In this document: positions 19,020-20,955 of the stretch, piece after piece
How positions within the stretch are numbered: position 1 is the stretch's first letter
How the letters are laid out: each line of letters begins with the position of its first letter
Source of the DNA: Minisyncoccota bacterium
GTDB lineage: Bacteria; Patescibacteriota; Minisyncoccia; UBA6257; 2-01-FULL-56-20
Length of the DNA: 64,000 nucleotides
Direction of reading: 5' to 3'
NCBI GenBank assembly: GCA_031291905.1
Contig: JARLIC010000137.1
Location: 51,762 to 115,761 of the forward strand
Translations under genes and position numbers: made by a program
Notes under the pieces: model-generated
The model's database searches: none
What the model was told of the DNA's origin: nothing
What the model saw: the letters and a program-made list of their open reading frames with translations, nothing else

Positions 19020-20669
19020 ATGGCTTGGGATTCAGCGTACTATTCGTCGGTCAACGAAGATCTCTTGCGATTCATCCCGCCGGATAGTAACCGCGTGCTT
19101 GAGGTGGGATGCGGAACCGGGGCGTTGGCCTCGCGGTTCAAGCGGATCAATCCGAAGTGCGTGTACTGGGGAGTGGAGGCTGACCAAGATGCGGGCGAAG
19201 CAGCTCACAATAATCCTGATCTCGATATCATGTTTTCAGAAACAATCGAGCACTTCCTAGGTCGATATCCCACGGAGTGCGAGAATCCCGATTGCGTCGT
19301 ATTCGGCGACTGCCTCGAACACCTTGTCGATCCACACGCCGTTCTCAAGAAATGCGTTGAATGGCTTAAGCCCAACGGCTCCGTCGTCGCCTGCGTTCCC
19401 AATGTTCAGCATTGGAGCGTGATTCAAACACTGATCCAGGGCCAATGGCCTCGAATGGGATCAGGATTGTTTGATGCGACGCATCTCAGTTGGTTCACCA
19501 AGCAAAGCCTGATTGAGATGTTCGAGGCGGCGGGGCTAACTATCGCGAAGATCGTCCCTCGCAATATCGCGCCAGGCGGCGAGCGTCTCATCGACGCCGT
19601 GAAGGAGTTTGGGCTTACCGAGGACGTCGGACGGTTTAGGGAGGGATGCCAGGCGTATCAATGGCTGATCCACGCCGTCAAGGGCGACGTCCCAAGCCGT
19701 AAAGTTCTCATCCGTGGCTTCACCGCCGAAGGATGCTGCGCCCGACCGCGTCTCACGGAGCCGGGCGGAATGATCAATACGATTCCCGGCTTCCGCTACT
19801 CCGAGGTCACGACACAGGTCGAGCCGGGGGAATCCGTGGTCGTTGTACGTCAGCGATTCAACATCACCGAAGCCGCCATCCGCGAACACCTGAAGCACGG
19901 GCAGTTGATTATCGGCGAATGGGACGACGACCCGTGGTACGAAGGGTTCAACGGCAAGCTCAAGACGCCATCCGTCGAATGGGCTCTCAAGGCTTGCCAC
20001 GCGATCCAGGTCAGCACCGAAGCCATCGCCGAACTCGTGCGACCGATCAACCCGAACGTCGCAGTGTTCCCGAATCAGATCGCAGCCGTGGGACCAGAAC
20101 GAGAGTACGTCGAGTCCGACGTAATCCGGGTCTATTTGGGAGGCCAGAGGAATAAAGGCGACTGGGACAAAGTGATCCCCTTCGTCAACGGCATGTCCGC
20201 CGCGAGCCCGGATGTTTTTCACTTCGTCGTCGTGCACGATAGGGATCTCTACCAGGCCCTTGAAACGCATAGGAAGACATTTTACGCCTTCCAGCCTTAC
20301 GAAAAGTATCGGGCCATACTGAGGACGTGCGATGTGACGATTGCTTCTCTAGCCAACACGCGGTTCAATCGGTGCAAGAGCGATATAACCGTAATCGAAT
20401 GCGCGGTGGAAGGCGTGGCCGTGATTCCGTGCAATCCAGAGTCCAGCATGTACACTGAGCTAAGGTCTTGGAAATACAACAAGAAACCAAGCGAGTTCGC
20501 TGAATCCCTTCGCAGCCAGGGACGAAGAGATCGCAGTTGGTCCATCAGCAACCGCATGCTCTGCGACCACTACAAGAAGCGAGCCGCATGGTACGACGGC
20601 TTGCTCGACGACAAGGCTGAATTGGATCGCCAGTTGTTCGAGCGGCTGCCGGAACTTCGTCCTACTTGA
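19020..20669 (+). CDS. class I SAM-dependent methyltransferase fused to GT-B-like glycosyltransferase domain
   Basis: MTase motif I VLEVGCGTGALA and post-I, II and III motifs are present. The C-terminal half has an ..ECAVEGVAVI.. GT-B-like region. GC is lower than in neighbours and the strand is opposite. Confidence 0.65.
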   Translation: MAWDSAYYSSVNEDLLRFIPPDSNRVLEVGCGTGALASRFKRINPKCVYWGVEADQDAGEAAHNNPDLDIMFSETIEHFLGRYPTECENPDCVVFGDCLEHLVDPHAVLKKCVEWLKPNGSVVACVPNVQHWSVIQTLIQGQWPRMGSGLFDATHLSWFTKQSLIEMFEAAGLTIAKIVPRNIAPGGERLIDAVKEFGLTEDVGRFREGCQAYQWLIHAVKGDVPSRKVLIRGFTAEGCCARPRLTEPGGMINTIPGFRYSEVTTQVEPGESVVVVRQRFNITEAAIREHLKHGQLIIGEWDDDPWYEGFNGKLKTPSVEWALKACHAIQVSTEAIAELVRPINPNVAVFPNQIAAVGPEREYVESDVIRVYLGGQRNKGDWDKVIPFVNGMSAASPDVFHFVVVHDRDLYQALETHRKTFYAFQPYEKYRAILRTCDVTIASLANTRFNRCKSDITVIECAVEGVAVIPCNPESSMYTELRSWKYNKKPSEFAESLRSQGRRDRSWSISNRMLCDHYKKRAAWYDGLLDDKAELDRQLFERLPELRPT

Positions 20670-20955
20670 TGATCGCCAGGACGTTCTCTTCTTTCACCAG
20701 AAGCAGCTTCTTGCCGTCGACCTTGAATTCCTCGCCCGCGTACTTCGTGAACAAGACCGTGCGGCCGGGCGAGAAACCGACTTCGATCCGCTCGCCGTTC
20801 GATGCGATCCGACCCGGACCGACCGCCAAAACTGTGCCCTTGTTCGGCCTGTCCTTGGCGACGTCCGGGAGGACGATGCCGCCCTGCGAAACGTCTTCGG
20901 TCGCGTCACGTTCGATGATGCACCAGTCAAGCGTCGGAACGAGAGTCATCAACAA
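20662..20955 (-). CDS. groES: co-chaperonin GroES (Cpn10)
   Basis: [25 protein letters not shown]..NGERI...KYAG.E.[13 protein letters not shown] aligns along the full length with the GroES pattern. Confidence 0.85.
   Translation of the reverse strand: [97 protein letters not shown]

Follow-up and report, generated by a model that had tools for sequence, protein, structure and literature searches.

A solitary, divergent GroES gene in the late gene block of an uncultivated phage

The GroES locus and its neighbourhood

The window, a stretch of 64,000 nucleotides from contig JARLIC010000137.1, contains on its minus strand an ORF of 97 aa with a TTG start (20662..20955), in which the GroES pattern quoted in an earlier, sequence-only reading is present exactly. 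That reading located the gene correctly and placed its start 6 nt too far upstream. The true start is likely the ATG at 20949, which is preceded by a GGAG motif and gives a product of 95 aa beginning with MTLVP. Public gene calls likewise begin GroES at this ATG. Moreover, both the GGAG and the ATG are kept in the diverged variant of contig L088, though the DNA around them has diverged. The features of the locus are collected in Table 1.

Table 1. Features at the GroES locus, in positions of the window
Feature	Position	Strand	Remarks
Methyltransferase-glycosyltransferase fusion (SAM-methyltransferase + glycosyltransferase)	19020..20669	+	Pfam Methyltransf_23 1e-21; PHROG 7162 glycosyltransferase on residues 260-543
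GroES/Cpn10 coding sequence	20662..20949	-	95 aa + stop
Divergent intergenic spacer, 25 nt	20950..20974	.	between GroES start and first Cys-rich ORF start on the opposite strand
Shine-Dalgarno GGAG	20958..20961	-	8 nt upstream of ATG 20949; read from sequence
Three tandem paralogous small Cys-rich ORFs	20975-21196, 21189-21410, 21407-21691	+	antisense to late strand
Family-2 glycosyltransferase (GT2)	21657..22622	-	Pfam Glycos_transf_2 4e-8; next late-strand gene upstream of GroES

GroES shares its strand with the capsid and tail genes, and the late-strand placement given by the sequence-only reading holds. Its position is not between the structural and the glycosylation genes as had been proposed, but between GT2 and the methyltransferase-glycosyltransferase fusion, within the structural block. 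The immediate neighbours are opposite-strand genes, and GroES is boxed in by antisense genes. The fusion gene is convergent with GroES, and the two 3' ends share 8 bp (20662-20669). GT2 is kept in all relatives of the phage, and the copy number of the Cys-rich ORF array varies in them from about 0 to 4, according to gene calls and tblastn.

The spacer upstream of GroES is too short to hold a promoter of its own. No sigma-70-like promoters beyond chance expectation were found in 18700-22800, and a scan for promoters together with terminators yielded no excess over the chance number; the sigma-70 consensus scan is uninformative here because the phage encodes its own sigma factors. The codon usage of GroES is like that of the late structural genes: its GC3 of 0.81 falls within the range of the portal, capsid, and tail genes (0.80-0.89), and the opposite-strand neighbours have lower values (0.55-0.69).

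Phage identity of the contig

The gene had been read as phage-encoded, which agrees with its surroundings. Phage genes extend across the 82 kb examined (the window and 8.9 kb beyond each end) and include those for TerL, portal, two HK97 capsid proteins (major capsid proteins, MCPs; 23191-24690 and 24844-25884), tail proteins, DnaN, DnaB, ThyX, and sigma factors. The source is an uncultivated phage of ~119 kb. Its lineage has no isolated relative, with an MCP at most 29% identical, and megablast of 17000-27000 against a phage collection gave no match. No tRNAs were found.

The NCBI record reads 'MAG: co-chaperone GroES [Candidatus Pacebacteria bacterium]', and this assignment is a mis-binning of the phage contig. 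Candidate-phyla-radiation (CPR) bacteria were considered as the host on the basis of that label and two CPR matches, and were rejected, since the GC is ~59%, the genes are those of a phage, and non-CPR homologues are closer. It is very improbable that the gene is a host groES whose contig is bacterial, chimeric, or the flank of a prophage. Such an origin agrees with the wording of the NCBI record and with the lower-ranked homologues of a word-based search, which include the CPR bacteria Torokbacteria and Yanofskybacteria. It is contradicted by the embedding of GroES among capsid and tail genes with phage genes over 82 kb, by the same junctions in at least four independent assemblies and one diverged variant, by the missing downstream groEL (present in 78 of 80 cellular loci), and by the fact that no cellular sequence exceeds 57% identity among 15 billion proteins. 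A host gene is effectively refuted already.

Family membership and sequence features

The 97-aa ORF matches Pfam Cpn10 (PF00166) with E=8.7e-26 and 90.2 bits (gathering score 21.1), and its residues 5-96 cover profile positions 2-93 of 93. The sequence-only reading had described a bona fide bacterial-type GroES aligning along its full length and had staked this on a profile search; Cpn10 is the best and sole Pfam match, and so the description is upheld. Further matches are PHROG 3188 'co-chaperonin GroES' (E=4.2e-22, positions 2-95 of 96) and Thermus thermophilus Cpn10 (E=3e-21). The alignment with Escherichia coli GroES is colinear, with 37.5% identity over 96 aa.

The GroEL-binding loop G23-G24-I25-V26-L27-P28 is numbered as in E. 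coli GroES, and G23-L27 are identical. It lies in a mobile loop of about residues 16-37, followed by a roof hairpin of about residues 45-58 without deletion relative to E. coli, and Y70 takes the place of E. coli Y71. G24, I25, and P28 are each at least 90% conserved across 384 cellular GroES, and all columns at this level of conservation are retained in the phage protein save for D89N. The residues of the mobile loop and of the glycine/proline framework are all canonical.

Other positions depart from the cellular pattern. R9W, V10C, and D63R occur in none of the 384 cellular GroES and V59F and D89N in ~1% of them, and W9, C10, F59, R63, and N89 are fixed in both phage variants. All 15 of the NCBIfam GroES equivalog and subfamily models (NF0015xx) score under their curated cut-offs, the best with 91.4 bits against 120 (NF001527) and 88.8 against 96 (NF001531). 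These scores mark the protein, as judged by its sequence, as a divergent Cpn10 rather than a typical cellular ortholog. The substitutions affect positions that are normally conserved, and the protein could therefore behave differently from canonical GroES or have a different partner.

The same substitutions, at otherwise nearly invariant positions, and the scores under the equivalog cut-offs are in line with a GroES retuned to disturb the host chaperonin during takeover, for example by GroEL sequestration or an altered cycle. However, the mobile loop and the glycine/proline framework are canonical, the gene lies among late virion genes and not early takeover genes, and a precedent was not found in the literature consulted. 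Interference is extremely improbable.

Predicted structure and comparison with T4 gp31

The AF2 monomer model of the phage GroES has a pLDDT of 86.1, and low confidence is confined to the mobile loop, as expected of a flexible loop. The model predicts a single-domain beta-barrel with a roof hairpin, that is, the GroES fold. Foldseek gives TM 0.81-0.86 to the solved GroES structures 1WNR, 4V4O, and 1AON; in contrast, the comparison with T4 gp31 (1G31) gives TM 0.59 and 12% identity. No gp31-type Pfam match was found at E<=1, and PHROG 931 'head morphogenesis' is matched with E=0.059 over 34 residues only. Together with the E. coli-like length and roof hairpin, these results support the earlier view that the protein is not gp31-like.

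T4 gp31 and RB49 CocO are required for folding of the major capsid protein (PMC5649160), and the job proposed here for the phage GroES is alike: capping host GroEL so that the major capsid protein folds. On the other hand, gp31 has a greater length and no roof hairpin (PMC5649160), whereas the phage protein is an ordinary Cpn10.

Cellular and viral relatives

Cellular GroES: The phage protein shares with cellular GroES/Cpn10 (E. coli 1AON; T. thermophilus 1WNR and 4V4O) the length of ~95 aa, the beta-barrel, the mobile loop with G-G-I-V-L, the roof hairpin, and Tyr70/71. In contrast, it is at most 57% identical, falls under the NCBIfam cut-offs, and has the unique W9, C10, and R63 and the rare F59 and N89. 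Its gene is solitary in a phage late module, without groEL downstream.

Isosphaeraceae and Anaerolineae: In an exhaustive HMMER search, the nearest cellular GroES are those of Isosphaeraceae (Planctomycetota) at 51-57% identity, followed by Anaerolineae at 46-54%. Isosphaeraceae GroES (for example Tundrisphaera lichenicola WP_435007663.1 and Singulisphaera sp. PoT) have ER...AKD.P.KG...YAG(D/E)EFK...KK.LL motifs in common with the phage GroES. However, they are too distant for a recent capture, and Anaerolineae GroES is nearly as close. The placement of the phage GroES by NJ bootstrap is weakly supported, and neither group is close enough to name a donor. An Anaerolineae host had been considered because all 80 loci of a contig scan were Anaerolineae, but that scan is biased, its candidates having been picked by exact 8-mers such as KVDGKKLL. 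This signal was overturned by the exhaustive search, in which the Isosphaeraceae-type GroES is slightly closer.

Phage GroES: Phage GroES is already well documented as a kind of gene, and NCBI already names this protein a co-chaperone GroES. PHROG 3188 comprises solitary canonical Cpn10 from tailed phages, including the jumbo phages Serratia BF and Erwinia pEa_SNUABM, Xanthomonas PBR31, Microcystis Mvi-JY20, Flavobacterium 'immuto', and Bacillus 0305phi8-36. As in the present case, the mobile-loop motif is kept and the partner is presumably host GroEL. In contrast, these proteins are less than 40% identical to the present one, which belongs to a different phage lineage and is encoded at a capsid-glycosylation hotspot.

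Virioplankton GroES: GroES-only phages are common, and a solitary viral GroES is treated in the virome literature as a widespread auxiliary gene (Marine et al. 2017, PMC5649160). The virioplankton GroES-only contigs of that study likewise encode Cpn10 alone. The common marine viral type has a kinesin-like neighbour (PMC5649160), which is absent here.

The GroEL partner

No GroEL-like sequence was found at E<=1 in the window and 8.9 kb beyond each end, that is, in 82 kb of the ~119 kb. Among cellular loci (80, all Anaerolineae), groEL lies less than 400 nt downstream of groES in 78; the cellular groESL arrangement, with groEL directly downstream on the same strand, is not found at the phage gene. 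The use of host GroEL suggested by the sequence-only reading is compatible with this result.

Alternatively, GroES may partner a phage GroEL encoded outside the examined region, so that the phage would have a full GroES/GroEL system of its own. The examined region leaves about 37 kb of the 119-kb contig uncovered, viral GroES and GroEL pairs exist (PMC5649160), and IMG/VR contig L004 has a distant GroES and a GroEL match. However, viral pairs are normally adjacent, in the order GroES>GroEL or GroEL>GroES (PMC5649160), and no GroEL-like sequence was found at E<=1 within 82 kb. Moreover, viral GroES that accompany a viral GroEL often replace the loop glycine (PMC5649160), whereas the loop is canonical here, and an own GroEL is considered improbable.

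Selection and distribution among related phages

Between the phage and the variant in L088-L090, 37 GroES codons differ, 32 of them synonymously, with dN/dS 0.054. GroES is 94.7% identical in amino acids between the two phages, GT2 70%, the methyltransferase-glycosyltransferase fusion 64%, and the third Cys-rich ORF 65%; the value for the fusion is a BLAST identity, since indels make an ungapped dN/dS invalid. GroES is the most conserved gene of its neighbourhood, and the substitution pattern indicates that it is functional and selectively maintained.

IMG/VR single-protein scans with GroES, MCP, and TerL found nothing close, and the relatives were reached only via MCP alignment. GroES is absent within 9-10 kb of the capsid gene in nine to ten relatives whose capsid-glycosyltransferase synteny is the same. 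Since these relatives have the same capsid and glycosylation genes, GroES is accessory and not needed to build this virion type.

Proposed role

The protein is probably a functional phage Cpn10/GroES that was gained by one phage sub-lineage and helps host GroEL to fold late proteins. In this mechanism, the gene would have entered the block of virion genes at a variable spot, flanked by two conserved glycosylation genes, and its product would be made together with the late proteins. The phage GroES would then assemble as the usual heptameric lid, and its canonical mobile loop (G-G-I-V-L) would dock on the host GroEL ring. Supplementing or replacing host GroES, it would let the host chaperonin fold phage late proteins, among which the two HK97-fold capsid proteins are the likeliest clients, followed by tail or fibre proteins. 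Folding of capsid or tail proteins via host GroEL is a plausible role.

The same Cpn10 may instead be a dispensable 'moron' with a conditional benefit and not a dedicated capsid-folding factor, for example by keeping up chaperonin capacity when the cell is stressed, when the temperature shifts, or when host groES is switched off by the infection. This is possible but rather unlikely. The absence of GroES from nine to ten relatives that have both capsid genes and the glycosylation module in common with this phage, the variable gene content of the hotspot (0-4 Cys-rich ORFs), and the regard for solitary viral GroES as an auxiliary gene (PMC5649160) are in line with it. In contrast, very strong purifying selection, with conservation far above that of the flanking genes, and late-gene-like codon usage speak for a gene that is important and well expressed in the carrier phages. 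The two explanations overlap and differ just in clients and essentiality.

A bolder and doubtful version of the folding role makes the protein a co-chaperonin of canonical fold that has been retuned through W9, C10, F59, R63, and N89 for its own clients. These would be the duplicated, probably glycosylated HK97 capsid proteins, in a job like that of gp31 for T4 gp23 but with the roof hairpin kept, and the Isosphaeraceae kinship could be a first hint of a Planctomycetota host.

Implications

Since the gene content of this contig is that of a phage, no conclusions on host or metabolism should be drawn for that CPR lineage from its Candidatus Pacebacteria label. The unusual substitutions at conserved GroES positions would be cheap to test for altered chaperonin behaviour. 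The comparison with a dozen relatives dates the gain of GroES as recent and confined to one lineage, at a hotspot of variable content, yet no gene of the neighbourhood is better conserved. It illustrates cleanly how an accessory gene can be under strong selection. Phages with a GroES of their own that depend on host GroEL are a known pattern, to which this gene adds one well-supported case.

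Phage nature of the contig

The GroES gene is surrounded by terminase, portal, capsid and tail genes, in agreement with its description as phage-encoded in the sequence-only reading. In addition to the virion genes in the table, the window encodes a neck protein; its tail-associated proteins include one that is tape-measure-like and a tail protein. C5 DNA methylase, DnaN clamp, RNA ligase, DUF5131, ThyX, and exonuclease genes are also present, and the window has no tRNA. The 8.9-kb extensions beyond each window end add YqaJ, DnaB, acetyltransferase, and more small ORFs. A 119-kb contig encodes the identical GroES protein, deposited as MDR3582583.1 ('MAG: co-chaperone GroES [Candidatus Pacebacteria bacterium]'). 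Based on its gene content and GC of ~59%, this contig is very likely a tailed phage mis-binned into a Candidatus Pacebacteria MAG. A chimeric assembly is excluded, since the same gene order recurs in the independent assemblies SRR23300978, SRR23300980, and SRR23300986, and a diverged variant of the phage occurs in JGI 3300036651, JGI 3300036652, and SRR11673481. A megablast search matched no close isolated phage, and among GenBank phages the capsid protein reaches no more than 29% identity.

The terminase has 849 aa and carries an additional N-terminal P-loop region before the usual terminase domains, which matches PHROG 15, primase, and DnaC-like families. In related phages, the gene calls give two shorter genes, one for Terminase_6N and one for Terminase_6C; the single gene of the window may be a fusion, contain an intein, or represent a different terminase type.

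Features of the phage GroES neighbourhood and other phage genes in the window
Feature	Position	Strand	Remarks
MTase-GT (methyltransferase-glycosyltransferase) fusion	19020-20669	+	Downstream, convergent with GroES
GroES	20662-20949	-	Pfam Cpn10, PHROG 3188
Three tandem Cys-rich paralogous ORFs (the next three rows)	20975-21691	+	ORF calls; no Pfam match
Cys-rich ORF 1, 73 aa	20975-21196	+	No Pfam match
Cys-rich ORF 2, 73 aa	21189-21410	+	No Pfam match
Cys-rich ORF 3, 94 aa	21407-21691	+	No Pfam match
GT2, family-2 glycosyltransferase	21657-22622	-	Beyond the Cys-rich ORFs as seen from GroES
HK97-type capsid gene, 499 aa	23191-24690	-	Pfam Phage_capsid, PHROG 10
HK97-type capsid gene, 346 aa	24844-25884	-	Pfam Phage_capsid, PHROG 10
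Portal	29551-31209		Phage gene in window
Large terminase	33315-35864	-	Phage gene in window
Sigma-70-family gene	58882-59496	+	Pfam Sigma70_r2, r4 weakly; precomputed annotation of identical contigs
Sigma-70-family gene, adjoining the first	59512-60072	+	Pfam Sigma70_r2, r4 weakly; precomputed annotation of identical contigs

Gene structure and surroundings

The ORF listing gives a 97-aa ORF with a TTG start at 20662..20955 (-), and its translation contains the 31-letter GroES string quoted in the sequence-only reading. That reading located the gene correctly but set its start 6 nt too far upstream. A GGAG at 20961-20958 (-) stands 8 nt ahead of an ATG at 20949, public gene calls begin there (95 aa, N-terminus MTLVP), and the layout is kept in the diverged variant, which together place the gene at 20662-20949. 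GroES was also said to lie on the late strand between structural and glycosylation genes. The strand is indeed that of the virion genes; its position is instead between two glycosylation genes, which are themselves flanked by the capsid block and the tail block. Both adjoining genes are on the opposite strand: the first Cys-rich ORF starts 25 nt upstream of the GroES start, and the 3' ends of GroES and MTase-GT overlap tail to tail by 8 bp (20662-20669), leaving no space for an intervening terminator. A sequence scan around GroES brought up no clear sigma-70-like promoter and no convincing terminator, and the promoter scan is uninformative because the phage encodes its own sigma factors. These factors may be the reason for the missing host-type promoters near late genes. 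GC3 is 0.81 in GroES, 0.80-0.89 in portal, capsid, and tail genes, and 0.55-0.69 in the opposite-strand neighbours. This indirect evidence is consistent with a gene long resident in the phage and co-expressed with late genes.

Family and fold of the protein

Cpn10 is the sole Pfam family matched, end to end as anticipated (E 8.7e-26; score 90.2 bits, threshold 21.1; 2-93 of 93 profile positions covered), and the protein also falls in PHROG family 3188, 'co-chaperonin GroES' (E 4e-22). Each of the 15 NCBIfam GroES models matches over the full length, but with a score under its curated cut-off, the top scores being 91.4 (cut-off 120) and 88.8 (cut-off 96); thus, the phage GroES is a divergent family member rather than a typical cellular ortholog. 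By sequence, chloroplast Cpn20/23 and T. thermophilus Cpn10 are the closest proteins of solved structure. Identity to E. coli GroES is 37.5% across 96 residues. The two proteins are colinear, with a roof-hairpin segment of equal length, Y70 equivalent to E. coli Y71, and an identical G23-G24-I25-V26-L27, the mobile-loop motif that touches GroEL in the 1AON complex.

The AlphaFold2 model, built with 42 homologues, has a mean pLDDT of 86 and dips only at the flexible loop of residues 21-30. In Foldseek searches of the PDB, it matches T. thermophilus, E. coli, M. tuberculosis, and human Cpn10 with TM 0.81-0.86, whereas the match to T4 gp31 is far lower (TM 0.59, 12% identity). The full-length Cpn10 match, the colinearity with E. 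coli GroES, and these TM values support the earlier claim of a bona fide GroES rather than a gp31 analogue.

Unusual residues and origin

The protein was compared with 384 cellular GroES, mostly its own nearest relatives. All columns at least 90% conserved in this set are kept except for D89N. The phage residue of R9W, V10C, and D63R occurs in none of the 384, that of V59F, T30V, and D89N in ~1%, and that of Q36N in ~2%. W9, C10, F59, R63, and N89 are the same in both phage variants.

A word-indexed search found a best identity of at most 52% outside the protein's own cluster. A species-genome scan yielded nothing but Anaerolineae (Chloroflexota), 80 loci with identities of 46-54%; this uniformity is partly an artefact of selecting candidates via exact 8-mers such as KVDGKKLL. 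Exhaustive HMMER over 1.84 billion representatives gave 15,883 relatives; the top ranks are inflated by two-domain Cpn20-like proteins, and the best single-domain matches (53-59% identical) fall in a large family with only Planctomycetota among its named members (Tundrisphaera, Singulisphaera, and Isosphaeraceae MAGs). Direct BLASTP gave 51-57% for the Planctomycetota group, 46-54% for Anaerolineae, and ~40% for reference GroES. In a neighbour-joining tree, the phage pair joined P0144, a single metagenomic sequence, close to the planctomycete group; support for this placement was weak and unstable. From these comparisons a recent donor cannot be named; the phage GroES would be either anciently diverged or fast-evolving, and an Isosphaeraceae-like host may be taken as a lead only.

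Selection and distribution among related phages

Between the window phage and its diverged sister (L088-L090), GroES shows 94.7% identity at the protein level and 85% at the DNA level. Synonymous changes account for 32 of the 37 codons that differ (dN 0.042, dS 0.78, dN/dS 0.054). Identity of the flanking proteins in the same phage pair is only 70% for GT2, 64% for MTase-GT, and 65% for the third Cys-rich ORF, making GroES the most constrained gene of its neighbourhood. Judging from these substitutions, it is selectively maintained and not a decaying passenger.

Relatives were gathered via the capsid protein, gene neighbourhoods, and an IMG/VR scan with capsid alignment, yielding 9-10 distinct phages of 35-61% capsid identity with contigs spanning the GT2 to MTase-GT junction. 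In all of them, the capsid gene is followed by a gene for a 152-aa protein, GT2, and opposite-strand MTase-GT. The junction itself varies: GT2 and MTase-GT directly abut in the relatives L086 and L087, and others hold one to four Cys-rich ORFs, an HNH gene, or an S4-like ORF. A GroES homologue is absent from all of them over the 9-10 kb flanking the capsid gene in either direction (tblastn E<=1e-2 or 1e-3). Within that range, GroES is not a core gene of the phage group, and it is thus regarded as a gain in the sub-lineage of the window and sister phages.

Several other features of these loci were observed. The Cys-rich ORFs, antisense to the late genes, share the N-terminus MSDQRCG(T/A)C and the C-terminus FGC(I/V)LWE.K, and their products might bind zinc; tblastn and gene calls show about 0-4 homologous copies at the junction of related phages. 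The GT2 and convergent MTase-GT pair (19020-22622) is kept beside the capsid gene down to ~35% capsid identity, which suggests virion glycosylation or methylated sugars. Both of the adjacent capsid-gene copies are found in relatives down to ~44% capsid identity. Farther out (L104-L110 and others), only one capsid gene seems to be present, since the first-capsid match falls inside the interval of the second gene. The related phage L085 has an IS605 OrfB/TnpB (Cas12f-like) gene between terminase and portal (1261-2274), and in L091 a small protein with an Acb2/Tad1-hairpin Pfam match, a possible anti-CBASS/Thoeris sponge, lies directly upstream of the portal (3602-3919).

Probable dependence on host GroEL, and significance

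No GroEL-like sequence was found in the 82 kb examined of the 119-kb contig, in contrast to cellular loci, where groEL directly follows groES in 78 of 80. The best-supported reading is the classical one of a lid on host GroEL: the phage would make its own GroES, whose canonical mobile loop would let it cap host GroEL, and the capped chaperonin would promote folding of late proteins. Capsid proteins are the obvious guess as clients. Phage co-chaperonins have genetic and biochemical precedent (PMC5649160), and several phages need host chaperonins for head or tail assembly (summarised in PMC5649160). Virions of the same kind are made by relatives that have no GroES in the examined region, and hence a booster or conditional helper is more likely than an absolute requirement.

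Annotated GroES occurs in jumbo, Xanthomonas, Microcystis, Flavobacterium, and Bacillus phages, each less than 40% identical to the window protein (tblastn), and PHROG 3188, to which it belongs, already bears the co-chaperonin annotation. A small-subunit chaperonin gene is present in 165 of 2,178 phage genomes, and GroES-only viruses are common in viromes, usually with a conserved mobile-loop motif (Marine et al. 2017, PMC5649160). The viral locus L004 (IMGVR_UViG_3300012920_009748) also encodes a GroES-like protein (852-1136) distantly related to the phage GroES, with 27% identity, and has a strong GroEL tblastn match elsewhere; a viral GroES and GroEL pair or host contamination is possible. 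Phage GroES is an established category, and NCBI already names this very protein GroES. The points of modest interest are its clean history of gain and retention, its odd substitutions, and the mis-binned contig.
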